Assembly: GCA_031416075.1 (NCBI GenBank)
Contig: JANOSY010000089.1
Span: forward strand, 1 to 64,000
Source of the DNA: Candidatus Tenderia sp.
Lineage (GTDB): Bacteria; Pseudomonadota; Gammaproteobacteria; Tenderiales; Tenderiaceae
Length of the DNA stretch: 64,000 nucleotides
Reading direction: 5' to 3'
Shown here: positions 11,052 through 58,599 of the stretch, piece after piece
Position numbering within the stretch: position 1 is the first letter of the stretch
Layout: every line of letters starts with the position of its first letter
Notes under the pieces: model-generated
Seen by the model: the letters and a program-made list of their open reading frames with translations, nothing else
Databases searched by the model: none
What the model was told of the DNA's origin: nothing
Made by a program: the position numbers and the translations under genes

Positions 11052-13010
11052 CTATGGTTTAAAGTGGGCCACCTCTTCTCTTAGCTGTAGCAGTAATTGT
11101 GGCGTGCTGGTAGGACCATAGCGCAGTTGTGAATATAATTGTGTAATTAATAGAGTTGGAGCAGCTAGATCAGGGCACGTATTGATTGTACGCTGTGCAA
11201 ATGCGCTGGCATTTTCATGAGGAGCACGTATCAATCCACGACGCGATAGCTTATGACAAAAAATAAGATATTGTTGTTGAACTGGGTCAATGGTTGGTTG
11301 GCGTTTAGCAAGTATGAGCAGTGCAATAACGGTGAATAGTCCACCCACGGCTATTGCCATAGCCCATGCTAACTGTTTCCATGATTTTATATCAAGCCCT
11401 AATTTGTGTAGAAACCGTTCCTGTTGTTCCGGGCCATAACCAAGTATCCACTGATTCCAGTTGTTATTGATCGCGTCTATATTTTTTTTAAGTTGCTGTA
11501 GTAAGTTAACTATATTTTGATTATGGGCCATGGTGAATAGCACTGTTCCGCTGTTTCTGCTGGCACTGATATCGATTCCTCGCTCGATACGTTCGGGGGC
11601 AACCGCAGCGGTTGGGTCAACCCGTACCCATCCTCTCCCTGATAGCCACACCTCTGCCCATGCGTGAGCATCCCGCTGACGGATCACAAAATAATTTCCG
11701 ATCTCATTTAACTCTCCCCCTTGATACCCGGTAACAACCCGTGCCGGTATGTTTGCAGCACGCATGATCATTACAAAACTTGAGGCATAGTGTTCACAAA
11801 ACCCACGGCGACTCTGAAATAGAAACTCATCTGTTGAGTCTTTACTGAGTAATAGGGGCGGTTCAAGTGTGTAGATAAAGGGTTGATTGCGATAGATAGA
11901 AAGTGTTTGTTGAATGATGGCTTCATCATTGTGATAGTCACGTCGTAATGTACGGCCCAATGCAACGGTTTGTGGATTAACAGAGGTTGGCAATTGTAGT
12001 GATAAGTGGTGTAAAACAGGTGATATATCACCGGTATTATATTCTGGATAAGAGGCCATCTCATAGCGGACTCGTTGTGTAATATTATTGGCAGCAATAA
12101 ATTGATACTCAGTGCTGATCTGACCATGTTCATTACCATTAGCAGGTAAATCTAGGGCAAGCAGCCATTTTTTATTATGTGGTTCTAGTGTCAGGGTGTA
12201 GTTAATTGGGTTTCCGTGCCATTGGGCTTCTACACTATTAATGTAGGTTGTTGGAATGGGTCCCCAGTTACGCCCATCAGTCAGTGTCAACACTGGGCCA
12301 CGCCAATAACGTTGTTGTGGCGGTGGAACGGTATCTTTGAAACTAACACGAAATGCAATAGCATCGGATTGACTTAGACTGCTGATATTACCGGGGCTCA
12401 TGGAGTCACTCAGTCCGGTCATTCCCGAATAGGCATCTTTAGGTAGGCTCCATATTGGACCAGGCAAACGTGGGAATAGTATAAATAGCACGAGCATGAG
12501 TGGTAATGCCTGACCAAATAGCTGTGTGGATATTTTTAGGCTTGATTTTAAATGTGCAGAATGGTGATGTGTGAGGTGAATGTGTAAGGCAATTAATCCC
12601 CAACTCATGGTAAAAACATATAACGCAACGAAAATCGTTTGATGATATAAAAAATGTGTTATCAGTACAAAATAGGCCATAAAAAGGATAACTAATAGAT
12701 CGCGCCGTTGACGTAGCTCAATCAACTTTAGCGCCAACATAGCAACAAGCAGAGCAATGCCAGCATCACGTCCCGCGATACTTCCATATTGTGCAACGAT
12801 TGCACTAATCACAAGAGCGATAAGCAATACGCGGAGTAAGGCACCGGGCAAGCGCCAGCCCAATCGCGATGCTTGCCAGCGCCAGATGCCAATAATAATA
12901 ACGAGGGCGCTTTCCCACCATGGCAGTGTTAAAAAATGTGGTGCTAATATTAATAACATCATTAATAAAAGCAGGGTGATAGAGCGTTGACTGAGTATAT
13001 TCATACTCAT
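11052..13010 (-). CDS. DUF3488/transglutaminase TgpA-family membrane protein
   Basis: N-terminal TMs, GFCEHYAS catalytic Cys, ARVVTGYQGG, HAWAE, WVRVDPT. Confidence 0.93.
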   Translation of the reverse strand: MSMNILSQRSITLLLLMMLLILAPHFLTLPWWESALVIIIGIWRWQASRLGWRLPGALLRVLLIALVISAIVAQYGSIAGRDAGIALLVAMLALKLIELRQRRDLLVILFMAYFVLITHFLYHQTIFVALYVFTMSWGLIALHIHLTHHHSAHLKSSLKISTQLFGQALPLMLVLFILFPRLPGPIWSLPKDAYSGMTGLSDSMSPGNISSLSQSDAIAFRVSFKDTVPPPQQRYWRGPVLTLTDGRNWGPIPTTYINSVEAQWHGNPINYTLTLEPHNKKWLLALDLPANGNEHGQISTEYQFIAANNITQRVRYEMASYPEYNTGDISPVLHHLSLQLPTSVNPQTVALGRTLRRDYHNDEAIIQQTLSIYRNQPFIYTLEPPLLLSKDSTDEFLFQSRRGFCEHYASSFVMIMRAANIPARVVTGYQGGELNEIGNYFVIRQRDAHAWAEVWLSGRGWVRVDPTAAVAPERIERGIDISASRNSGTVLFTMAHNQNIVNLLQQLKKNIDAINNNWNQWILGYGPEQQERFLHKLGLDIKSWKQLAWAMAIAVGGLFTVIALLILAKRQPTIDPVQQQYLIFCHKLSRRGLIRAPHENASAFAQRTINTCPDLAAPTLLITQLYSQLRYGPTSTPQLLLQLREEVAHFKP

Positions 13011-44855: not shown

Positions 44856-46688
44856 ATGTGTGGAATTATTGCAGCGGTAGCAGAACGTGATGTTGTCCCC
44901 ATTCTGGTCGAGGGGCTGCGACGTCTTGAGTATCGCGGTTACGACTCGGCCGGCGTTGCCATTATTGATGCTAACGGCGTTATCGATCGTGTCAGAACTG
45001 TTGGTAAGGTTAATGAACTGGCCGCGGCTATAGAGACTAATCCAATCCGTGGTTTTACCGGGATTGCCCATACCCGCTGGGCCACACACGGCAAACCATC
45101 ACAAGCCAATGCCCATCCACACATCTGTCGCAAAACCGTGGCAGTAGTGCATAACGGCATTATCGAAAACCATGAAGCACTGCGTGCACAGCAGCGCGAG
45201 CATGGATATGAATTTACCTCAGAGACAGATACTGAAGTGGTGGTGCATCAGGTGTATCACTATCTGGATCAAGGGAAGGATCTGCTGGCCGCAGTCACCG
45301 CAACAGTGGGGGATCTGCAGGGTGCTTATGCGCTAGGTGTTATCACCAGCCAGGAGAACGGTCGGATAGTGGCTACACGTCGTGGCAGCCCACTGGTGAT
45401 TGGTGTGGGTATTGGCGAACACTTTATCGCCTCCGATGTGGCGGCGCTGTTACCCGTGACACAACGGTTTATCTTTTTACAGGATGGCGATATCGCCGAT
45501 ATCCGTAAAGATAGCCTGACGATCTATGATGCTGACGGCAATGTGGTTGAGCGTCCCTTAACGGTCAGTGAGCTGAGCGCCGACGCCGTAGAGCGTGGCC
45601 AGTATCGCCACTACATGCTCAAAGAGATATTTGAACAGCCACGCGCCATCGCCGATACCCTTGAAGGTCGCCTCAGTGGTGACCGCGTCCTGGAAGAGGC
45701 GTTTGGCCCCGGCGCCAGCGACATATTTAATGGCGTTCAAGGGGTACACATTATCGCCTGCGGCACCAGCTTTCATGCCGGTTCGGTTGCCAGATACTGG
45801 TTTGAATCGCTGGCGCGCATCCCCTGTTCAGTTGAAGTGGCCAGCGAGTTTCGTTATCGCAATCCCGTTGCACGTAAAAACTCATTAGTCATTGCCATCT
45901 CCCAGTCAGGCGAGACCGCCGATACACTCGCCGCATTGCACGAGGCCAAGCGGCTGGGTTTTGGTCACTCTATGGCAATTTGTAACGTACCCGAAAGCTC
46001 CATGGTGCGAGAGACCGATCTCTGCCTGATGACACGGGCCGGCCCGGAGATTGGTGTTGCTTCCACCAAAGCATTTACCACCCAGCTCACCGCATTAATG
46101 TTGCTGGTGATTGTACTGGGTCGGCGTCACGGTATGGCAGCCGCCACAGAAGTGGAGTTGGTTAGACAACTTCGCAGTCTGCCAGCCGCAGTTGAACATG
46201 CATTAGAGTTGAATGGTGAAATTGAAGCGCTGGCACAGTTTTTTGCCGATAAAGAGCATGCACTTTTTCTCGGGCGTGGAGCACAGTATCCTGTGGCAAT
46301 GGAGGGCGCACTTAAACTCAAAGAGATCTCCTATATTCACGCAGAGGCGTATCCTGCCGGTGAATTAAAACATGGCCCATTGGCACTGATTGATGCCGAA
46401 ATGCCGGTCATCTCCGTTGCGCCTAATAACGCGCTACTCGAAAAATTAAAATCCAACCTGCAAGAGGTACGTGCGCGTGGTGGGGAGTTGATTGTATTTG
46501 CGGATGAAAAATCAGGCGTAGAGACAGAGGCCAATGTGCGGGTCATTAAAGTTGCCGCCACCGATGACCCGATAGCACCGATTATTTTTACCATTCCGTT
46601 ACAACTACTCTCCTACTACGTAGCTGTGCTTAAAGGTACGGATGTTGACCAGCCTAGAAATCTGGCAAAATCGGTGACGGTGGAGTAA
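44856..46688 (+). CDS. glmS: Glutamine-fructose-6-phosphate aminotransferase
   Basis: [23 protein letters not shown]. Confidence 0.99.
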
Positions 46689-47071
46689 CTCCTCTCTGTT
46701 GTTTCTGACTCCGACAAATAAAATTCGTCGGGGCGGGAACGGATTTTGACATTAGCGTTCAGCAGTCTGCTAATCTCCAAATCCAATTGAATCTTTGAAT
46801 CGCCTTGGGGTTCGCTGAGATTGTGCCCCAAAGAGCGACTGCTTTTGAGCGTTTATATTTCTGAATGATGAAATCGTGATTGACCTAAGGGTGTAGCCAG
46901 ACAGGGCAATGACTCTAATAGGAAGCGCAGGTGGATTGTGGCGAACGACTCATCTTGGGCCATAACAGCCGGTAGCGTTTGCTCCTGTAAATGGCCGGTG
47001 TTTGGAGTGGATATGACGGCTATCGACCCAAAGGGGACATCCCATCTATGAATGGAAATGTGGTCTGTCCC

Positions 47072-47182
47072 CAATGCTGTTCATTTAGCGAATCTCCGTT
47101 CGTCCTGAGCCTGTCGAAGGACTCTGGATGAGTGGCTGGTGGTTCGACAAGCTCACCACGAACGGCTAAGTGAACAGCATTG
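47072..47182. mobile_element. 111-bp MITE with IS4-like ends
   Basis: TIR CAATGCTGTTCA(T/C)TTAGC 17/18; perfect 10-bp TSD GGTCTGTCCC at 47062-47071 and 47183-47192; internal 23-bp-arm hairpin. Confidence 0.85.
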
Positions 47183-47331
47183 GGTCTGTCCCCTATTACG
47201 ACCAAGAAAAAAACTAGGGTATAAAACGCCGGCCAAATTAGTGGCGGAACATATGGCTGCAATTGCAGCTTAGGTGGTTATGCACTTCGGGGTTGAATCT
47301 GCCTGGCCCCTTTAATTCATGAGATGACTTT

Positions 47332-49599
47332 ATGAGCGCCGACGCCACACTCTTGCCAAAAGAAGTAGCAACATTGGTTCATCACATCGAGCTGAATCGC
47401 TCGGGTTGGTGGGACAAAGTGGTTCAACGGCTCGCGTTAGCCGCCGTGTGGTGGTCCGACCACCCGCCGAGTGCCGATGAAATCAAGAACACTCTGTCAC
47501 AGGAGTTCAAGCTGTCGTTGAGCCATGACAAACTGCGCACAGTGCTCAATGCCCTGGAGAAGCAAAACCTCTTGGTTGCGCTTCAGGAAGGGCGGTATCG
47601 CATTCCGGATGTACAACGTTTAGTGTTTGAGCAGGATATCTCAGCCGCTGAGAAGGTTGAATCAAGTGCGCGCGAGTTCTTTTGCAAGCTTGCGAAAGAG
47701 CTTTGCGCGGGCCTCGACGAAATTACTGTCTGGAGCGCATTCCAAACAAAGTTTCTGACGCCACTCATTAAAGATCTTGGTGCTAACGCATACCACCTTA
47801 TTACTGGAGAAAAGCTGAGTGTAGACCGTAGTTTAGTTGACTGTTTCTTGAAAGAATTTAAGCCTGAATTTCATTCTGGCTTAAGAGGGCTTGTAACCAG
47901 TTTTCTGGATCCGAAGAAAGACGAAGTGCGCGCATATGTCAGCCGCATGCTGCATGCACGCTTTTGCGTGGAGGCCGGGGGGCTACCAGAATCGGCTATT
48001 CAGAAATTAAGTGAGACTGTCAGCAAACAAGCCAAGTTTCGGATATTCGTAGACACAAACTTCTTGTTTTCGCTGCTTGAATTGCACGAGAACCCTTCGA
48101 ACGCCGCCGCACGTGAGCTTCTTGAGCTGATCACGCAGCTCAAATCTAACCCCAAGGTGCAGTTATACATTGTTACAAAGACGATCGGAGAAGCAAAAAC
48201 GTCGATTACTGCGGCGAAGCGTCGCCTCTCAGGGATTCCTGATAGTGGAAACTTTACTCAAGCCGCCTTGAATGTCGGGGTCTCGGGGATGACGGAGAGG
48301 TTCCTATCAGAGCGACTGCGCCGTGGCGGAAAGCTGACTGCCGAAGACTGGTTCGACCCGTATCTTACTGACTTCGTGGCGATCGCCCGAGGGAAAGGGG
48401 TGGAATTCTTTAATGAAAGCCTTGACTCATATGCAATACGGCAGGATGTTATTGATGACATTATTTATGTTCAGGAGTTTGAGAAACGTCTAGACGAAAG
48501 CAGGAAAAAGTCTTACCAGAAAGTAGCGCACGACATGATCCTGTGGCACTTTGTTAGTGACCAGCGCCCCGCCTACATTGAGTCCCCAATCGATTCTCGG
48601 GATTGGATACTCACCGTCGATTACCGACTGATTGGTTTTGATGAATACAAACAGAAGAACTCGGGATCGAAGATACCTCTTTGTCTCCACCCAACCTCGC
48701 TAATTCAGTTTCTACAGTTTTGGGTGCCCCGTACCAAAGAGTTTGAGGAAGCCATGCTTGGTAGCATGGTCCTCCCATTCCTGTTTCAAAAACTTGACAC
48801 TGAGGGAGAACGCACCAGCTTAAGAATCCTCAAGGGTCTTGGGCGATTCGAGGGGCGCGACGATATTTCCGCGCAAACGATAACCCACGTTATCCTCAAT
48901 GACGGATTGCGAGCTCGTCTTCAGTCCAACAAAACGGAGGACGGGGAAGCCGAGATTGCTTTGATACGCGATGCTCTGGTCGAAGAGATGAATACACGTG
49001 CTGCCGCTGAAGTTGATAAGACGCACCAGTTGCAGACTATTGTGAACGAAAAAGAAGCGGCACTAAATGCACTTGATCGGTCGAAAGAAGTGGAAGTCAA
49101 TATATTAAACGAGAAGATTGCAGCGGAAGAGACGCGAGCGAAAGCGGCAGATGAAAGACTCACCGTACAAGGCGCAGAAATCGAAGAACTGAAAGCATGC
49201 TTGAAACGTACTGAGGAGGACAAGAAGCAGCGCTCCGCCCTATTCAACTATCTTTGGTGGCTCATTTTGGTGCTGCTGGTGTCAGGTGTTTCCGCATGGC
49301 AAGGAGATCGTTTGTTTCCCGATTGGGCCAAATTTATCGGTGCATATCTCTTCAGGGGGCTGGTGGGTGCTCTCGTGTTCATAGTTGGGCACCTGCTGCT
49401 GGAGTGCTGGGCGAGAAGAAATCAGTGGATGGCGCGGCTCTGGCCCTTGAAGCAGATCAGAAGGTTTAGGAAGTGGTTGTGGGCATTGGTAGTTGTGAGC
49501 CTTGTGGTTGGGGTGATCGGCAACCTATACGCCAATCGGATACAGAAACAGATTGATCTGGAGTCGAGTGCTCCGTCCAGTTCCGAACGTAGGTATTAA
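47332..49599 (+). CDS. PIN-like nuclease domain protein with N-terminal wHTH-like region, coiled coil and C-terminal TM helices
   Basis: IFVDTNFLFSLL, TIGE, AHDMILW, WILTVD acidic PIN pattern; three hydrophobic segments at C-terminus. Confidence 0.75.
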   Translation: MSADATLLPKEVATLVHHIELNRSGWWDKVVQRLALAAVWWSDHPPSADEIKNTLSQEFKLSLSHDKLRTVLNALEKQNLLVALQEGRYRIPDVQRLVFEQDISAAEKVESSAREFFCKLAKELCAGLDEITVWSAFQTKFLTPLIKDLGANAYHLITGEKLSVDRSLVDCFLKEFKPEFHSGLRGLVTSFLDPKKDEVRAYVSRMLHARFCVEAGGLPESAIQKLSETVSKQAKFRIFVDTNFLFSLLELHENPSNAAARELLELITQLKSNPKVQLYIVTKTIGEAKTSITAAKRRLSGIPDSGNFTQAALNVGVSGMTERFLSERLRRGGKLTAEDWFDPYLTDFVAIARGKGVEFFNESLDSYAIRQDVIDDIIYVQEFEKRLDESRKKSYQKVAHDMILWHFVSDQRPAYIESPIDSRDWILTVDYRLIGFDEYKQKNSGSKIPLCLHPTSLIQFLQFWVPRTKEFEEAMLGSMVLPFLFQKLDTEGERTSLRILKGLGRFEGRDDISAQTITHVILNDGLRARLQSNKTEDGEAEIALIRDALVEEMNTRAAAEVDKTHQLQTIVNEKEAALNALDRSKEVEVNILNEKIAAEETRAKAADERLTVQGAEIEELKACLKRTEEDKKQRSALFNYLWWLILVLLVSGVSAWQGDRLFPDWAKFIGAYLFRGLVGALVFIVGHLLLECWARRNQWMARLWPLKQIRRFRKWLWALVVVSLVVGVIGNLYANRIQKQIDLESSAPSSSERRY

Positions 49600-49653
49600 G
49601 CGATGGCGCATGTAAAACAGCCACCACCTGATCAAACGAATGGAAAACGGCAT

Positions 49654-50183
49654 ATGCCCACTATCGTCGCGCCTTTATTCCCGGTGGCACATGGTTTTTT
49701 ACCGTCAACCTATTGGAGCGACATGGCAATAATCTTCTAATACGTGAGATTGATCTGTTTCGTCAGGTTGTCAGCAGAGTTAAGCAGGCACACCCGTTCC
49801 ACATCGATGCATGGGTGGTATTGCCTGAACATATGCACCGTCTCTTCACGCTACCGCCAGGAGATAGTGACTTCAGCCTGCGCTGGCGATTGATTAAATC
49901 AGGCTTCTCCCGCGCCTTACCAATAACCGAGAGGCGTTCGCCGGTGCGCATAGCCGCTGGCGAGCGGGGACTATGGCAACGCCATTTTTGGGAACACGCG
50001 ATTCGTGATGACGATGATTATCAACGTCATGTGGATTATGTTCACGTTAACCCCGTGAAGCATGGTTTAGTGGCGCGTGTGAGGGATTGGCCATATTCCA
50101 CCTTTCACTGTTACGTCAAACTGGGCATCTACTCTTTGCATTGGTGTGGTGATCCAGGGATGACTGTTGAGGGGTATGATTGA
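49654..50183 (+). pseudogene. REP-associated tyrosine transposase (RAYT/TnpA-REP), frameshifted just after the start
   Basis: ATG CCC ACT ATC GT.. is one base short of MPNYRRAFIPGGTWFFTVNL; HMH HUH motif, WQRHFWEHAIRD, YVHVNPVKHG. Confidence 0.85.
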
Positions 50184-50190
50184 CATGCGT

Positions 50191-50218
50191 GCGATTACGC
50201 TGCGCTAATCGGAGCTAC
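50191..50218 (-). repeat. GTAG-type REP downstream of RAYT
   Basis: Reverse complement GTAGCTCCGATTAGCGCAGCGTAATCGC. Confidence 0.7.
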
Positions 50219-50470
50219 GCGCTTATGACTATGACCCACAATATCTTCAAAATACATCGATACGCCTGGAATGGGGTATAAATAAGGTCACATACGACGT
50301 CATATTAGTAAAATGTAAAGCAGATTGCTTATGGGAAAAATATCCGGTCAAATGAGCGTTGATTAAAACAACGGATATTGAAATGAGTGCTGCAGATTCT
50401 TAGACGGGGGTTTCTACAGGCTCGTTATGCACTAAAACACCCGGATAGCGTTAGATAAAAGGAGAGTCTA

Positions 50471-51337
50471 ATGATAAGTATAAAGCCGCTTAGTATTGAT
50501 GGAACAATGGCGTTTTGGCAGACAATTAGAACTGCTATATCAACTTCAAAAATGGGTGTTTTTTCCGACAATGGACTCATATATGTCGCAATGAGTGACA
50601 AAACAAGAATGGTCCCCTTTATCAGGAAAAAGGAAGAGCTGTTTAGTACAACTATAAAAAATCAATCGAAAAAATATCGAGTTATTATTAATGGTCAATT
50701 CTATGGAGTATCGAAAACAGGTATTGCTGATGCGATGTGGGGGAACGATCCTGTAGACCCATCCCATACGACTCCTGAGGGGAAGATTATAAATAATGGA
50801 AAGATGATTGGGGGGCGATCCGCGCCGTTAATGTTTTATATCGCAAATCATTGGGAAACTACTCCGAGATATACATTCAATTCGGGGGTTGTACCAGCGA
50901 AGTCTAGTTCTGCCATAGGTGGGTGTGGTCCGGTTATAGTTAACGGTATGCCATATGGTGAGATTAATAATTATTCTGGTGGTGTTCCTGGAAAAAAAAG
51001 GGGTGAGCCGATCCTTAAAAACAGGCCTTATTTAACACAAAGAAGTAACAATACGTTTTCTGCATATTTGAAAAGACCCCCTTATACTGGAAAAACTATT
51101 ATCGCCCATAGTTCATTATACAATGTACTGCTTGCACTGGTTCTGCCTCACGGTGCTTCTGGCATCTCTCTTTCTCAGGTTAGGGATAAGTTGAATAAAT
51201 CTAATTTTAATAATGCAGTATTTTTAGATGGTAGCGACTCGTCCTTATTGGTTGTTGATGGTGAGTTCATTGCCAAGGCTGGAGAAGATAAAGACGAGAC
51301 TAATGTGGTGGGAGTAGGATTTGAGTTTGGTATTTAG
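50471..51337 (+). CDS. Phosphodiester glycosidase (NAGPA/DUF2233)-like hypothetical protein
   Basis: AAGGAG RBS; INGQFY, GGCGPVIV, AVFLDGSDSS resemble INGGFF, GAGP, ALNLDGGGS; low GC. Confidence 0.6.
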   Translation: MISIKPLSIDGTMAFWQTIRTAISTSKMGVFSDNGLIYVAMSDKTRMVPFIRKKEELFSTTIKNQSKKYRVIINGQFYGVSKTGIADAMWGNDPVDPSHTTPEGKIINNGKMIGGRSAPLMFYIANHWETTPRYTFNSGVVPAKSSSAIGGCGPVIVNGMPYGEINNYSGGVPGKKRGEPILKNRPYLTQRSNNTFSAYLKRPPYTGKTIIAHSSLYNVLLALVLPHGASGISLSQVRDKLNKSNFNNAVFLDGSDSSLLVVDGEFIAKAGEDKDETNVVGVGFEFGI

Positions 51338-51338
51338 C

Positions 51339-51806
51339 ATGAGAAAAATAACATTTTTCATATTTTTTTTATTATATTCAGTACTCATAGTCTTTTTAAG
51401 TTCAGAATATTTTCTTATTGGAGGTAGTAATGTTATAGAGTTCGTTTACTCACTAGCTATGTCTGTAAAAATAGCGGTCATATTTGGGCTGTTTGTATTC
51501 GGATATATGTCATTTTTCACAAAAAACAATAGTCTCTTTGTCAGAGTAATGTTTACATTGGTTGTTTTTCTTTCTTTTGTATCATCACAAAGTGTGGTGT
51601 ACTCCGGGAAAAATAATACCATTGAATATTATATTTATGGTTTTTCTGTTAATAAAATAAACTTATTGCCATCAAAGGGTGAAAATGTGATTGTCGATTC
51701 AATAGTTCCAGGTTTGGTTAGAATTTCGAGTGGAGATGTCTCTTTAACATACGTGTCTTTATTTTGCCCATTCTGCTTGGATGCTTCTGAACTTCAAGAT
51801 TTTTAG
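51339..51806 (+). CDS. Small membrane protein (3 TM), very AT-rich
   Basis: ATG 1 nt after upstream stop; hydrophobic N-terminal segments. Confidence 0.7.
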   Translation: MRKITFFIFFLLYSVLIVFLSSEYFLIGGSNVIEFVYSLAMSVKIAVIFGLFVFGYMSFFTKNNSLFVRVMFTLVVFLSFVSSQSVVYSGKNNTIEYYIYGFSVNKINLLPSKGENVIVDSIVPGLVRISSGDVSLTYVSLFCPFCLDASELQDF

Positions 51807-51810
51807 GGCC

Positions 51811-51927
51811 GTAGGGCGGGTTATCATAGCGTAATCCGCCGCATGTTTTTTTACCGGGTAAGTAATTAATTGTTACTGCGACGCTTGGTGGATTACAAAA
51901 TAAAAGGCCAGTTTTAATCCACCCTTG
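51811..51927. repeat. Degenerate REP pair (REPIN/BIME-like)
   Basis: GTAGGGCGGGTTA..TAATCCGCC and GGTGGATTA..TAATCCACCCT. Confidence 0.6.
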
Positions 51928-52318
51928 AAGTCGGGATCCTGACTGATGGCTGTCTCGACCCATTGCAAGCTTCAGCCTAGCCGCCGGGAATGGTGTCTCT
52001 GCAGCGGGAGCGGGCTAAACAATACCAAAGCATGGTTGGAATCCATTGCTTAAGTGGATGCGGCCGGTTGGCTATCAAGATAGATTTTCAGGTCAGTCAC
52101 CTGTAATTGCTCACCGCACTACAAATCACGGCTGAATTGATCCGACGGACTTAATTTTTACTACGATGCTCGCCTCTCGCATGAGCTGCTCTGCGACGGA
52201 CATTGGCTCTGTGCGTGGGTTCAGCTGAATCAATAGATTACCGTATACATTATCGACGAATTTTATTTATCGGAGTTATCTGTTGTAGCATCCTTCGTCT
52301 GCTATCAGGCGGGTGACC

Positions 52319-53095
52319 TCAGAATTTATCCTGATGTTGGCGTAGCGCCTGTTCTGCCTTACGTGAGCGTTCGATATCTTCATTTAACTGTTGATTCAGT
52401 TTTAGCAGTTCACTGTTCATGGCCGCATAAGTACGGGTAAATACGCGTACAAAAGGGAACGCCAGCCCCAGCATAAGAATAGCAATGATAATCACTGCCA
52501 ATACACGCTCCCTTAGAGAGCGTTTGATGATTGATATCTCCATGTCTGCCCCAGCGACATAGTCATTCCCTGTGGGGGAACGAAAATGAATCATAACACT
52601 GCGAAACGTACCCCAGCGATCGGTGGAGGTATCAAACACTGGTTTATCTGATTGTATGGCAGTTAAAAATACTGGACTTGCTTCCGGGTAATCCGTCCAG
52701 TAGCGCGATACAATATTGTATTTAGTGTCATTAGCCGAGTAGCTGCTGGCGGTGAAATAAGCGGTGTTATTCTGAATAACGTAAGTATAGAGATAGGCAA
52801 AACCACCGGTCACAGCATGGTTTGATAATTCATTGAGATTGGCTTCATCTTCAGCGTGGTCGATGCTGTCGGCAGCAATGGCACGATCATGAAAATCAGC
52901 TGCCAATATCTTTGGCAGGTTCTCTGCGGCAGCGATTAACCGCGTGTCGATTTCGGCGATATAGTCCTGGCGGCTGACGATATAAGTGATTGAGGCAATC
53001 ACCAGCACACCAATAAAATAGATAATTAGTGCTAATAACAGACTGGGCGTATCTGGTTTATTTTTTTTGATCGATAATGCCACGACTGACTCCAT
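52319..53095 (-). pseudogene. Truncated membrane sensor (TM-periplasmic-TM-coiled coil, output domain absent)
   Basis: Two TMs, Cache-like DRWGTFRS..VAGAD, ends mid coiled coil (EDIERSRKAEQALRQHQDKF*). Confidence 0.6.
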
Positions 53096-53351
53096 TGATT
53101 AATAACATCGTTTGTGAGTGGTGCTGCCAAGTGAGATGAGATTGTGCAGTAAATTTCAGTTATGTTGTTTTTATGTGATGTTATCGATCGCCGATTTAAT
53201 AAACTGACTGGGTGATTTTACTGTTTTTAGTGGCGAATGTTTTGATTTGCGATGAATATCGTCTAAAGTGATGTGGGTGGTGAGCTAGGTTAGCCAGCTT
53301 TTCGTTTCATTACAAAAAAATCGCCAATAGATAAAACCGAAAGGAACAATA

Positions 53352-54014
53352 ATGACCTATTCAGTTTTAATTGTAGAAGATCAGGAGCCTGTGGCGCAGC
53401 GCCTATGCCAAGCAGTAATAGACCATCCTCAACTTGATTTATTTGGTGTAGCACCGACGTTGGCACAGGCACGTATATTAATAGAATCTGGAGAACCCAA
53501 TGTGCTGCTGGTTGATATCGGTTTGCCAGATGGAAATGGCACGGCGTTGATTCGAGAAATTTATCAACGGGGGTATCGGACAGAGGCGATGGTGATCACC
53601 GTTTTTGGTGATGAACGACATGTAATATCTGCCTTGGCAGCAGGGGCTACAGGTTACCTGTTGAAAGATGAACGTCTGGATAGAATAGCTGAATCTATTA
53701 TGCAGTTGATCAGGGGTGAGTCGCCGATGAGTCCCTCTATAGCCCGGTATCTGCTGAACCGTTTTATCTCCATTGAAAAGAGTGCAACAGTTAAAATTTC
53801 TACCGGTATCTGTCTCACAGTGAAAGAACAAGAGGTTTTACATTATATTGCAAAAGGTTTTACAGGGGCTGAGATTGCGCAGTTAATGAATGTCTCACCT
53901 CATACGGTTATGACACACACTAAACATATCTATCAGAAGCTTGCGGTACATTCACGGACAGAGGCTGTGTATGAGGCAACTCAGCGGGGAATTATTGCAA
54001 TGAGTGAGCCGTAA
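53352..54014 (+). CDS. NarL/LuxR-family response regulator
   Basis: VLIVED, VDIGLPDGNG, GATGYLLKD, LTVKEQEVL..IYQKL HTH. Confidence 0.95.
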   Translation: MTYSVLIVEDQEPVAQRLCQAVIDHPQLDLFGVAPTLAQARILIESGEPNVLLVDIGLPDGNGTALIREIYQRGYRTEAMVITVFGDERHVISALAAGATGYLLKDERLDRIAESIMQLIRGESPMSPSIARYLLNRFISIEKSATVKISTGICLTVKEQEVLHYIAKGFTGAEIAQLMNVSPHTVMTHTKHIYQKLAVHSRTEAVYEATQRGIIAMSEP

Positions 54015-54025
54015 CGGTGGCTGTT

Positions 54026-55888
54026 TTAATCTTGTTCGAGAGTCTGTCGTCTCTGTAGGGGGATTTTTAAACGTATGTGTGTCCCTTCTGCGCTTGATAT
54101 TACTTCGAGCGTTCCTCCTAAATCGTTGGCTCGTCCAGTCATGGTTTTCATGCCCCGTCCAGAATAAGTCTCGATGTTGATTCCTACTCCATCATCAATA
54201 ATTTCAATAATGGCGATCTCATTGTCATTGTCTTTAGGACCGTTGTCGCGATATCCACGGATTGTCACAGTTTGTGCAGATGCATGTTTTATAATATTGG
54301 TGATGGCCTCCTGCATGATCCGCAATATTTGCAAAATCTGCTGTGGGTTAAAAATAAGATTGCACGGTAAGTCGTCTAAAGACCAGCGTAGCTCTATCTG
54401 TTGCGACTGTAGGCAAGCGTTGACACATGGTCGTAAAGAGATGAGTGCCGTGGAGAGGTCATTATGTGAAGGGTCCAGTGAATCGAGAATTAATCGCAGA
54501 TCATTCAAGGTCGCACGTAGATGTTCTGCAAGCGCTTGATTTGTATATTGACCACTTTCAAGCATGGCCAATGCTGAGACCAGTTGCCCCCCCACGCCAT
54601 CATGCATATCTCTTACCATGCGTTCACGTTCTGCTGAAAGTACCTGTGCCCGTTCCAGAGTTCGCAAACGTTCGTTTTGTTCGCCCAACTCAACCGTACG
54701 TAGCTGTGCATTAAAAGTCAGCCCCTCATTCAGTGTTTGTGAATCTTGTAGTGAGTGTATGTACTTGTTAATGAGTGTGATTGCAACGACGATCTGTAGC
54801 ATCGGGATGCTGAGATATAAAAAATGATAACTTTCAATATCCACCAACTCTACAGAGATGAACCACTCATAAAGGGCTAATAGAGTAGTGGTAGAGAGTG
54901 TGATTAACATTAACGCATTGATTGGTGTATGAGAACGGCGATAACGGTGCCAGACAAACCCGCTGCTATAGAGTGTCGCCATGACAAGTGCCAACTGGAA
55001 TGGCCACAGTGGTAGGTTTGTGGAGATCTCTGATGGTAACGCGATGATAAACGTGGCACAAAGTATTGCCACAAAAAGCAGAGTACGTTCCAGCAGGCGG
55101 TGCTGTACTTGGTAATAGCGGTGTATGAACAGTATCAAACAGAGCGAAAATCCGATCAAGCCAACCCATATTGCCCACCTCTCTTGCCATACGGCACCAT
55201 TGATAAGATCAACCGTATACATCGTCCAGAACAGGGTGGCAGCGACGAGCCAGAGATAGTGATGTTGGTGGCGATTTTTTAGCCACACTATAATGAAACA
55301 CAGGCTCGCTAGCAGTGTGGTGATCAGTACTGTAGTAGGTATGTTGATGCGCCAGAACATACGCTTCCCAAAGCGCTCTTTTAACAGAATTGCCGCACCT
55401 ATATAAATACGGCTGGTAAAAACAGGTAGAGGCTGAATCGGATTTAGCTGGATATACAATCTATTTGAGCCAGCAAGCAACAGCCCTATGGGGATTTGTA
55501 GATAAAGTGGCCTGCTTGCCAGCGGTGAATATTGATTATCGTAACGAATGCCGTGTCCTAATAGCTGGCCATTGAGAAATACGGCAGCAGTGACCGCCAC
55601 CTCAGGCAGATAGAGCCCCCACACAGAGTCTGGTGTTGTCTCAAGTTCAAATTCAACTCTATACCAGCCACCACTGTTTTTTTGAGGAGTCAATAGCCGG
55701 TCTGGCAAAGTGCGTTGTACTCCATTAAGTTCCTCTGCAGAAAGTGGTTTTTTGAAAGTTGTATATAGAAGATATGCTTTATCAATGACGTAAACAGTGT
55801 CTGTTTCCGATGTGGCTTTCTCGGCGAAGATTAATAACCAAAAAATAGAGGAGGCAATCAACAGATGTTTGATTGTGTATGGCCACAT
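54026..55888 (-). CDS. 7TM-DISM-type sensor histidine kinase (HisKA_3)
   Basis: Extracellular beta domain (GWYRVEF, VFLNGQLLG), multiple TMs, ERERMVRDMHDGVGG, QEAITNIIKHA, DDGVG. Confidence 0.92.
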   Translation of the reverse strand: MWPYTIKHLLIASSIFWLLIFAEKATSETDTVYVIDKAYLLYTTFKKPLSAEELNGVQRTLPDRLLTPQKNSGGWYRVEFELETTPDSVWGLYLPEVAVTAAVFLNGQLLGHGIRYDNQYSPLASRPLYLQIPIGLLLAGSNRLYIQLNPIQPLPVFTSRIYIGAAILLKERFGKRMFWRINIPTTVLITTLLASLCFIIVWLKNRHQHHYLWLVAATLFWTMYTVDLINGAVWQERWAIWVGLIGFSLCLILFIHRYYQVQHRLLERTLLFVAILCATFIIALPSEISTNLPLWPFQLALVMATLYSSGFVWHRYRRSHTPINALMLITLSTTTLLALYEWFISVELVDIESYHFLYLSIPMLQIVVAITLINKYIHSLQDSQTLNEGLTFNAQLRTVELGEQNERLRTLERAQVLSAERERMVRDMHDGVGGQLVSALAMLESGQYTNQALAEHLRATLNDLRLILDSLDPSHNDLSTALISLRPCVNACLQSQQIELRWSLDDLPCNLIFNPQQILQILRIMQEAITNIIKHASAQTVTIRGYRDNGPKDNDNEIAIIEIIDDGVGINIETYSGRGMKTMTGRANDLGGTLEVISSAEGTHIRLKIPLQRRQTLEQD

Positions 55889-56342
55889 TATTGCGGATTT
55901 AGATTTTGTCTAAACAAAACTATTGAAAATCAAGGGGAGGAAATATCGGGTAGGTTAGGAATCTCTCCACCATAAAAAAACATTGATTAAGTATTTTCAA
56001 ATGGCCATCATTTTTTTGTCCTATAGAGTTGCCGTCGATATTTAGCACAATAGCCTCATGTGATCGTCCTTTATATAGATACTAGTCTGTTTACATAGCC
56101 GATGTACATACTGTTTAGTAGCTCATTTTTATATTGTCAATTTTTATTATTGTTACTTAGTCTATTAATTGGAGTTGTCGACGGATTAGCAGCTTAATAA
56201 GCGTTCAGTAATATTAAAAATCCCTTGTTTAGGGGATGCGCTAACGTTTGCATGTTGCCATAGTCGTTTACGCCACAGGCATGGGGCACGCTGGCTGAAA
56301 AACAGATATGTATATATCTCGATAACAGAGGATTGGGGCAAT

Positions 56343-57788
56343 ATGTTTTCGAGTCCAATGACATTATCAACATTTGTTACGGTATTGGTTTTTGGCAGTC
56401 TAAATAGCACGTTATCTTTTGCCCAGCCAAAAGGGTTGGTGCCGGTGGGTGATATTGTGATGCCCAATGTATTGCCCAATAATCGCGCCTACCTGGTCAA
56501 TCCCAATAGCCAGCAAAATTTCTATTTTGGTAAATGGGAGATTGGTGTTGATGGCAGACCGGTTGGCCAAGCTTTACCCAGCGGATTAACGGGCAGCAAC
56601 GCACTTCAGGATGTTGGTTTTTATCAGCGCAACATAGAAGATCCCACCACAGGGGAACGTTACATACAACAGATTGTGACGGATGCCGCTATTGCTGGCG
56701 ATACTTTTAGCAAGGTTGGTATGTTCTCTGAAAGCTACGTTAAAACAAATGGTCAAAATGGCGGGGTCTCTGTTCTTCAAGGGATGAATTGTGGTCTACA
56801 TAATGGAAAATGTCTGGCACCGGATGAAGGTACTTACATGAATGGACAGACGGCCACCTCCATTGAGTTTTTAAATAAGATTCGCACAGGATCGTTTGAG
56901 GATCCTCAAGAGAAGGTACGGCTAAAGCAGTTGATCTACGAAACAGATGATCCCAGCAAGTGGGCAGATGCCACACGAAATACTACTGGCACTACTTTTT
57001 ACAGTGACATATGGCGAGCTTCTTACGAGTATCAAGGGGTGCAGCTGGGTGACTTTGTTAATACAGTAACAAAATCATTAGATATTGACCCGCTCTACAG
57101 CTATGCAACATTAACGGCAGAGATGCGTTTTGATTACGACGCACGTGATCTTGAAGTCGCGCAGCGGGAGGGGATCACCGTAGGTGTAGATCCACAGGAG
57201 AATGTTGATATCTACCTGCTATCAGAGGCAGATAAACTTCGGAACAACTTTAGCAGCAGTTTTAGCAGTGGCCAGAAGGGGCTAATAGAGGCCCGCGACT
57301 ACATTAAAAACTATATTCAATACAGGGCCATTGCTCAGGAGGGGTGGCATGCCCCCGATGCCGGGTTGGTCAGGTATGAGATGTTCCAGGCTGAAATGGT
57401 CGGCGCACTGGTTAAGGCCGGCAATATTGAATACCAGAAAAAATACAAAGATATTGTAATTGATGCCAGTTGGATCGATGGAGCAAAAATCAATGCTTAT
57501 GGCACCAATCAAGACATGGGGTTCCAGCAACAGGGGCATGAACAGGTAACACCGGATAGATGTGAGAATGATAAAACATTTAAATTAGAGGCCGATCGTG
57601 TAATGTGCGGCTCTGTAGTCCGTTATGAGTTTGCTACTACTGATGTTTACAAGCTTATTAACGAACCGCGTAATTATGGTGCAGGGGTAGGTGACCAATT
57701 TAAAATTGAAAATAATATTGACTATGTTGACCCATTCAATCCTTTTTCAACAGTGCCTCATCTGCCAGACCCAGCTACAGTCAGATAG
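56343..57788 (+). CDS. Secreted hypothetical protein (481 aa)
   Basis: Signal-peptide-like N-terminus (..LSFA|QP), long unbroken ORF, two Cys pairs. Confidence 0.75.
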   Translation: MFSSPMTLSTFVTVLVFGSLNSTLSFAQPKGLVPVGDIVMPNVLPNNRAYLVNPNSQQNFYFGKWEIGVDGRPVGQALPSGLTGSNALQDVGFYQRNIEDPTTGERYIQQIVTDAAIAGDTFSKVGMFSESYVKTNGQNGGVSVLQGMNCGLHNGKCLAPDEGTYMNGQTATSIEFLNKIRTGSFEDPQEKVRLKQLIYETDDPSKWADATRNTTGTTFYSDIWRASYEYQGVQLGDFVNTVTKSLDIDPLYSYATLTAEMRFDYDARDLEVAQREGITVGVDPQENVDIYLLSEADKLRNNFSSSFSSGQKGLIEARDYIKNYIQYRAIAQEGWHAPDAGLVRYEMFQAEMVGALVKAGNIEYQKKYKDIVIDASWIDGAKINAYGTNQDMGFQQQGHEQVTPDRCENDKTFKLEADRVMCGSVVRYEFATTDVYKLINEPRNYGAGVGDQFKIENNIDYVDPFNPFSTVPHLPDPATVR

Positions 57789-57935
57789 TATGGGTAATTA
57801 ATAGTTGAAGAAGATTGTGTGGAGCAGCTGCTGTTTTTTCGGTCTCTGTTTTTGTATCTGTTCCAAGATTGTGAGCTCTGCCTAGGTATTGTTGTTTGAT
57901 GGTGATATAACGGAAAAATTGATCAAAGCACCCTT

Positions 57936-57970
57936 AAAAAGGAGCCCCATAATAAGTGGGCTCATTTTTT
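57936..57970 (+). terminator. Probable intrinsic terminator
   Basis: AAAAAGGAGCCC..GGGCTCATTTTTT. Confidence 0.55.
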
Positions 57971-58320
57971 ATTTACGTTGATACTACGATCTATTTAATG
58001 TTGTTGTCTATTTTGTGGATATAAACGTCGCGCTGAGGGAAAGGGATGCAGCCGCCGACCTCCAGCCCCTCTTTGCAGCGTTGAATGATTCACTTGTTGA
58101 GTCCGATACCGGTTAAACGTACTGAACGCCAGCGCTGGAAAGGGGCTATCTGCTTTTCCTGGAAGAGTCTGTGGTCCTGGCAGCAGATTCGTCAACGCTT
58201 TGATCTGTGCTCGTCCAATAGTGTGTTACGGCGGCCGTGAGTCGGCGGGGCAAAATATTAAGCATTGCCTCTATACTAAACGGTCGCGACTGTTGGGTGG
58301 TAGCGAACTATTATAGTGGT

Positions 58321-58599
58321 TCAGTGTGAAGGGCTGAGCGCTTTATTTGTCTGTTGTGCTGTGATAATGAGTTGCTGTTTTTCATTGCGACTCAATTTTT
58401 TAATGGCAGCTTCACGCCTGCTGGCGCTGCTGCGATCGTGGCCATTTTCAATATAAACCACGGACGCTGGCTGGCGGCCACGAAAATATTTTGCCCCACG
58501 TTGTGTGGTGTGTTGTTTAATACGTCGTTCGAGATTGTTGGTAATGCCGGTGTAGAGTGTGTTGTCGCTGCAGTGGATGATGTAGACAAGCCAGTTCAT
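58321..58599 (-). CDS. GIY-YIG nuclease (UPF0213/YazA-like)
   Basis: VYIIHCSDNTLYTGITNNLERR..H, REAAIKKL. Confidence 0.92.
   Translation of the reverse strand: MNWLVYIIHCSDNTLYTGITNNLERRIKQHTTQRGAKYFRGRQPASVVYIENGHDRSSASRREAAIKKLSRNEKQQLIITAQQTNKALSPSH

Follow-up and report, generated by a model that had tools for sequence, protein, structure and literature searches.

Tn7 has reportedly been described, in an earlier paper, as forming genomic islands. Passages of PMC11406308 set out its cis-acting layout: sites that partly overlap in the right end and stand apart in the left, an attachment (att) sequence outside the right end, an 8-bp tip typically ending in TGT/ACA (non-TGT in some Tn7-like groups), a 5-bp duplication, and a functional requirement that the last two right-end sites overlap. 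As given in part of PMC11014353, a Tn7-like insertion at glmS is present in 54 of 203 A. baumannii genomes, only 21 of the 203 having one predicted to be functional, and the islands at this gene span 1.9-25.2 kb. Here, we analysed a stretch of 64,000 nucleotides from Candidatus Tenderia sp. (the window, meaning that whole stretch) and found that a 5.6-kb island downstream of glmS, at 46706-52278, is likely to be the relic of a Tn7-family transposon. The island had been outlined before, from the letters of the sequence, as a non-Tn7, inverted-repeat-bounded element, either a decayed insertion sequence around captured cargo or a non-autonomous element making independent use of the glmS hotspot (hereafter the original prediction).

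Compared with the Tn7-derived islands at glmS, this one likewise lies at the att site after the gene, keeps Tn7-type ends, lacks the essential tns genes and falls within the published size range; it differs in its host, an environmental bacterium from another lineage of the same GTDB class, and in an end subfamily for which no autonomous member was found. With Tn7 itself and the glmS-targeting Tn7-like elements (tnsABCDE) it shares packed proximal sites, spaced far sites, oriented placement and an 11-nt register, but it has no tns genes, carries TGA...TCA instead of TGT/ACA tips, sits 16-17 rather than 24-25 nt from the gene, and shows no 5-bp duplication in the window copy. None of the domains of an autonomous Tn7-like element (tnsB, tnsC and TniQ/TnsD, often with tnsA) was found inside the island, and the differentiated ends are seen at the level of the end family, the window's proximal end keeping only one site. 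Tns-less Tn7-derived islands at glmS are already documented; the end subfamily, with its TGA tips and 16-17-nt offset, is a minor variant.

The genome analysed (G000) comprises 3.49 Mb in 95 contigs and is 99.98 % complete with 52.8 % GC; contigs of this assembly are written C25, C26 and so on unless another genome is named. The original prediction had described a 23-bp inverted repeat identical at 22 of 23 bases, and both arms were recovered at 46708-46730 and 52254-52276 (22/23 bases, 96 % complementary); at ≤3 mismatches, the 23-mer matched the window exactly twice, against any match in 0 of 100 shuffles. Alignment with seven further ends added two bases to the repeat, at 46706 (TGAC) and at 52278 (TAAC, reverse strand), which leaves a spacer of 17 nt (46689-46705) between the glmS stop and the element tip. 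Many unpaired genomic copies, which the original prediction had named as evidence against itself, did not appear: the whole assembly held four at ≤5 substitutions, namely the window pair, C25:1471-1493 and C26:35181-35203. Each of the four caps a homologous non-coding block of 286-340 nt, and the blocks fall into two end types with one pair each. At the glmS-proximal end, window 46717-47001 aligned to C25:1464-1179 with 86.4 % identity over 286 nt, the conserved non-coding tail extending to about 47001; at the distal end, window 51937-52276 aligned to C26:35520-35181 with 91.2 % identity over 340 nt. The roughly 300 bp inside each end, described earlier as riddled with stops, proved to be non-coding (longest open frame ≤63 aa, no codon periodicity), the copies differing at 37 and 28 positions split 15/11/11 and 10/9/9 among codon positions, and no family match, coding signal or transposase remnant was detected in this subterminal DNA.

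We measured site occurrence by counting a short motif (AWRTYCGTCG), with five occurrences in the window where 0.74 would be expected (none of 100 shuffles had as many); four of the five lie within the island ends, all pointing inward. Distal-type ends carry sites at the tip, at about +60 and at +111-115 in the window, in C26 and in three of three metagenome loci (L060-L062), the window motifs lying at 52254-52263, 52194-52203 and 52143-52152 (minus strand). Proximal-type ends carry two sites with a 20-nt period in C25, in G258 (a genome of the same class but a different family) and in a Diaphorobacter plasmid, and the window's proximal end lacks one 20-nt unit, leaving a single site without its packed partner. 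Among nine ends compared, eight start with TGAC and the window's distal end with TAAC, while the bases outside the tip vary. The tip was placed at TGAC because its register then matches that of tnsA-adjacent right ends; a TG just outside the tip in two of the nine makes a TGTGAC reading possible. Separately, a 78-nt stretch of the distal end (52106-52183), including the third site, shows no difference between the window and C26 against about 9 % overall, which suggests constraint or gene conversion.

The proximal end recurs beside glmS elsewhere. A 25-mer allowed ≤3 mismatches was matched in one of 400 further genomes of the class, G258, where 16 nt separate the glmS stop from the proximal end, which is oriented as in the window and resembles both C25 and the window over about 110 nt. 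The core genes recG, ubiCA, kdsDC, lptCAB and rpoN come next, and the G258 end is therefore read as a scar; among 12 genomes of its order, the search returned G258 and one 2-mismatch match taken for chance. A TnsA-domain search of 401 same-class genomes matched 18, including the unpublished G157, and did not match G000. In three of the 18 (G364, G196 and G407) tnsA lies directly after glmS, with right ends beginning 25, 25 and 24 nt after the stop, and the first site's A-rich core lies 11 nt from the terminal T both in these three and in the island-family ends. The end architecture is conserved throughout the family, and its position and orientation at glmS are fixed in two unrelated genomes. 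Neither the label "non-Tn7" nor an independent use of the hotspot is supported: the ends have the Tn7-family layout, align with tnsA-adjacent right ends and stand at a fixed distance from glmS. Island-type sites were found in none of the other tnsA-adjacent ends (22 of 23 tnsA loci, L094 of G157 being omitted, plus a Methylobacter plasmid locus). Downstream of glmS in G407 (G407:C2:619400-667600), two TnsA matches and two TnsD-bearing frames occur within 48 kb, probably a tandem array of Tn7-like elements.

Outside these genomes, the plasmid search gave two short matches to the proximal end, in Diaphorobacter and Acidithiobacillus plasmids, and no match to the distal ends, and viral contigs gave 0 matches. 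The Diaphorobacter match is a real proximal-type end, with no tns genes nearby in a gene table that is incomplete. The metagenome elements carry an RtcR-like CARF regulator, type I restriction-modification genes and OLD/AAA_15 proteins, a defence-type cargo that fits the cargo survey in the available portion of PMC8649781. Fourteen public-contig loci picked up by a 20-mer pattern were discarded as chance, their likeness never reaching beyond 20-28 nt. In L062 (1-240) and L061 (5290-5350), the distal end abuts another element's packed-site end, inverted and a few bases apart, which would be the outcome expected of tandem insertions at one attachment site.

A second copy of the element, whose two ends lie on C26 and C25, occupies a site that is unoccupied in the congener G001. 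The order on C26 is an Alpha-E gene, a terminator, the distal-type end and an interior with a Y1-transposase-like gene and a 2480-aa RHS/teneurin-like open reading frame (ORF) reaching near the contig end; on C25 it is a DUF2126 gene, a terminator, the proximal-type end and an interior with a PEP-CTERM protein. G001 has both flanks on one contig, 935 nt apart (L106 2-2340 vs C26:32801-35139, 84 %; L106 3276-3833 vs C25:1496-2043, 88 %), and C25:1496 is the first base outside the tip. CTAT borders each of the tips in G000, and G001 has it a single time at the corresponding point. Neither the C26 nor the C25 end has lost a site, and both tips are intact, reading TGAC. End copies in G000 differ by 9-14 %, more than the G000-G003 glmS difference (4-6 %), and G003, the nearest relative, has neither end, which argues that the two copies are old or were acquired separately; the proximal end was found in none of 40 relatives.

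Genes for the transposition machinery were searched for throughout G000. No TnsA N-terminal domain was found, TnsA being absent from four congeners as well, and no TnsD was found in a search that recovered it in G364 and G407 and missed the fragmented G196. TnsA and TnsB queries from G121 gave a best E of 1.1. TniB matches were marginal at a cut-off of 22.4, with 21.3 and 20 bits singly and 24.2 and 25.9 when their neighbours were counted in, and the control matched in 13 of 14 genomes. A Mu-transposase C-terminal domain was seen only in a Mu-like prophage on C67, and no other tniA-like gene was found in the genome. This prophage (G000:C67:6000-24000, L074) carries a Mu-type transposase, an AAA_22 partner, DUF3164 and a helix-turn-helix repressor-like gene; C67 has no exact match to the short form of the site motif, and the prophage is unrelated to the island ends. 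Among the island proteins, no tns gene, integrase or DDE gene was found, in keeping with the gene content first reported, which had overlooked a REP-associated tyrosine transposase (RAYT, 49713-50183) and an insertion sequence (IS) fragment (47202-47303). The original prediction holds insofar as transposon ends enclose the island, which lies at the glmS attachment site and has no transposition genes of its own, being decayed or dependent on help in trans.

We consider it probable that a Tn7-family transposon became the present island as follows. A TnsD-type pathway would have inserted the element after glmS so that its packed-site (right-type) end adjoined the gene; the cis-acting ends would have been kept and the tnsABCD-type genes lost, and the present interior would be cargo (a 755-aa protein and a low-GC NAGPA-like pair) together with a later miniature inverted-repeat transposable element (MITE), IS fragment, RAYT and repetitive extragenic palindromes (REPs). 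On the sequence evidence, TnsB/TnsC/TnsD-type machinery appears to have moved the island. The window copy is probably no longer mobile, because one packed site is lost, the distal tip has changed from TGAC to TAAC and no 5-bp repeats flank it; with TAAC at the tip, the transferred strand would not end in CA. As no autonomous element was found, the assignment to Tn7 rests on cis features and position.

Several observations weigh against this history. The tips read TGA...TCA, not the usual TGT...ACA; insertion is 16-17 nt, not 24-25 nt, from the glmS stop; and the window copy has no 5-bp duplication, its 8-nt direct repeat being out of register by 3 nt at the left tip. The second copy duplicates only 4 bases (CTAT), not 5, its similarity to G001 on the C26 side ends 18 nt short of the tip, G001 holds 935 nt there that G000 lacks, and, as the interior is unassembled, one half element may lie on each of C26 and C25. 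Nothing can be read from the TniQ search, whose control matched in no genome. No autonomous element with island-type ends turned up in the genomes, public contigs, plasmids and viral contigs searched, and no empty glmS site was recovered among draft relatives.

Beside the relic reading stands the idea that the four ends define an undescribed Tn7-family lineage, with TGA...TCA tips and insertion 8 nt nearer glmS than in the Tn7-like elements compared above, which persists mostly as tns-less, cargo-swapping "mini" elements moved in trans. We hold this to be unlikely; the C26...C25 copy would then be its still-mobilisable example. A little more doubtful is the narrower proposal that both copies are natural non-autonomous mini-elements of the Tn7 family, their tns genes never carried or long lost, that are moved by TnsABCD in trans. 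The autonomous relative supplying the proteins would be gone from G000, with the C26...C25 copy still open to mobilisation. In favour of such elements, a nearly complete assembly yielded two copies that differ in cargo and no tns gene, C26/C25 have intact tips and a full site set, and the conserved non-coding DNA runs for 286-340 nt and so past the site arrays. However, the divergence between copies, when set against that of glmS, speaks against recent movement in G000, the window copy is damaged at both ends and the interior of the second is not assembled. Portions of PMC11014353, moreover, describe Tn7 islands at glmS that lack tns genes as products of decay. The IS and MITE debris in the window copy fits decay too.

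Families other than Tn7 proper have to be weighed as well. Ends with several sites and TG...CA tips are also found in the Tn5053/Tn402-like, Tn552-like and Mu-like families, and Tn5053/Tn402 elements have terminal inverted repeats with repeated subterminal transposase sites and target res sites. PMC11406308, in the sections available, states the spread of such ends and tips across related families in part, and treats Tn5053/Tn402 as relatives of Tn7 whose only TniQ chooses targets. It is improbable that the island ends derive from one of these families. That no tns gene is linked to them in any locus seen would suit such an origin, but their placement after the glmS stop is oriented and at a fixed distance in two unrelated genomes, their register equals that of tnsA-adjacent right ends beside glmS, and the Mu-like prophage lacks an exact motif match. 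In contrast to Tn5053/Tn402 (tniABQ), no tni genes were found here, and the target is glmS.

There is very little to recommend the alternative offered with the original prediction, in which the repeat would be a dispersed REP or terminator hairpin placed by chance behind two convergent genes, and the island would not form a unit. The 23-mer is nearly palindromic and all four genomic copies lie 17-111 nt downstream of a gene end, yet four copies in 3.49 Mb contrast with the tens to hundreds of palindromic copies of a REP, and each edges a long homologous block of one of two types. The same ends, ordered site arrays included, recur in a genome from another family, on a plasmid and in metagenomes, and the A/T-rich stem was not called by a terminator scan. 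The island does share a RAYT gene and REP-like repeats with REP/RAYT systems, but these are passengers only, whereas the bounding repeat forms paired, differentiated ends and lies at glmS in another family. Equally hard to credit is a decayed IS whose ends bracket captured genes, as first proposed: terminal inverted repeats and non-coding subterminal DNA would be expected of it, but the ends are differentiated over about 300 nt with ordered site arrays, no transposase remnant was found and no duplication is flush with both tips.

Taken as a Tn7 relic, a tns-less island at glmS does not reveal a new independent user of the Tn7 hotspot, since its ends mark a Tn7 origin, and end architecture alone offers a practical recipe for spotting such relics. 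The subfamily with TGA tips and a 16-17-nt offset occurs in G000, in a genome of a different family, on a Burkholderiales plasmid and on three metagenome contigs with defence-type cargo. The survey in PMC8649781, as far as its accessible text goes, was seeded with Tns proteins and reports that some 30 % of the transposons contain IS elements; surveys seeded in this way are blind to tns-less elements. If tns-less copies can be mobilised in trans, protein-seeded surveys undercount Tn7-family mobile DNA. The features of the locus are listed below.

Table. Features of the glmS locus and its island in the window (1-based positions)
Feature	Position	Strand	Remarks
glmS	44856..46688	+	Pfam SIS and GATase domains; 3' end is the attachment target; stop codon 46686-46688
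TCTGTTGT direct repeat	46695-46702 and 52279-52286	+	8 nt; flush with right tip, 3 nt off left tip
glmS-proximal end	46706..47001	+	tip TGAC at 46706; one inward site, motif 46721-46730; equivalent of Tn7 right end
Imperfect 16-nt inverted repeat, 12-nt spacer	46741..46784	+	sequence reading; overlaps TTGACA and TAATCT
MITE-like element	47060..47198	.	arms 47070-47089 and 47165-47184; inserted inside island
IS fragment	47202..47303	.	98 % identity to C45:75556-75657
755-aa cargo protein, family unassigned	47332..49599	+	C-terminus hydrophobic, coiled-coil-like
RAYT	49632..50183	+	listed ORF 49713-50183; NF047646, 170 bits vs cut-off 80
REP-like repeat	50183..50219	.	inverted partner 51810-51846; many genomic copies
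NAGPA-like phosphodiester glycosidase, cargo	50471..51337	+	Pfam PF09992, 30.9 bits
161-aa membrane-like ORF, cargo	51321..51806	+	
glmS-distal end	51937..52278	-	three spaced inward sites; tip TAAC, not TGAC; equivalent of Tn7 left end
258-aa membrane protein, first gene past island	52319..53095	-	G001 similarity starts at its stop codon

The flanks of the island fit no simple duplication. The 9-nt strings given originally were confirmed (CTGTTGTTT at 46696-46704 and CTGTTGTAG at 52280-52288), but they do not form an eroded 9-bp target-site duplication, as the repeat is not flush with the left tip. Nor does a 5-bp Tn7-type duplication account for the TCTGTTGT direct repeat, and the five bases outside the two window tips differ (GTTTC left vs TCTGT right). 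The glmS stop codon lies within an 11-nt palindrome (46682-46692), whose second half, joined with the stop, reads TAACTCC and so matches the opening seven bases of the mutated distal tip, possibly by chance. An inward promoter-like signal had also been proposed just inside the left end. Both of its strings are present, TTGACA at 46746-46751 and TGCTAATCT at 46768-46776, with 19 nt between TTGACA and TAATCT, but a consensus scan of 46500-47400 returned 0 promoter-like sites. The imperfect inverted repeat overlapping them is found in C25 and G258 as well and may be an operator or a weak inward promoter. An Rfam scan of 46400-52600 gave nothing above threshold.

Within the island, the 755-aa protein matched no Pfam, NCBIfam or PADLOC family, no PDB relative and no defence model, and the Atlas clusters closest to it consist of unnamed hypothetical proteins of several phyla. 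The NAGPA-like gene pair (50471..51806) has a GC content of 38-39 %, against 52.8 % for the genome. The MITE is 99 % identical to C76:6610-6727 and 96.5 % identical to C74:1101-1215, and its inner parts recur on about ten contigs; the counterpart of the IS fragment on C45 adjoins an rve-domain frame (C45:75172-75429). The RAYT gene is probably damaged, since its conserved N-terminus, upstream of the listed TTG start (49713), has no in-frame start codon; further copies lie on C36, C87, C55, C15 and C24, and REP-like repeats also occur beside it at 49607-49717.

Downstream of glmS, the relatives diverge. G003 is 94-96 % identical through the glmS stop and then continues in other DNA, its contig ending 836 nt on, and G001 and G004 each have different DNA after the gene. 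Synteny with G003 resumes only at about window 57881-58364. G003 lacks the genes at 52319-57880, which encode the 258-aa protein, a LuxR-type response regulator and a histidine kinase, and G001 has them twice; the region that varies with respect to G003 is thus larger than the island. Downstream of the homologue of the 258-aa protein on G001:C66 (L038, about 11985-12025), two tandem A-rich units of ~22 nt follow right after the gene, succeeded by IS66 and group II intron debris, and these units might be the end of a different element.

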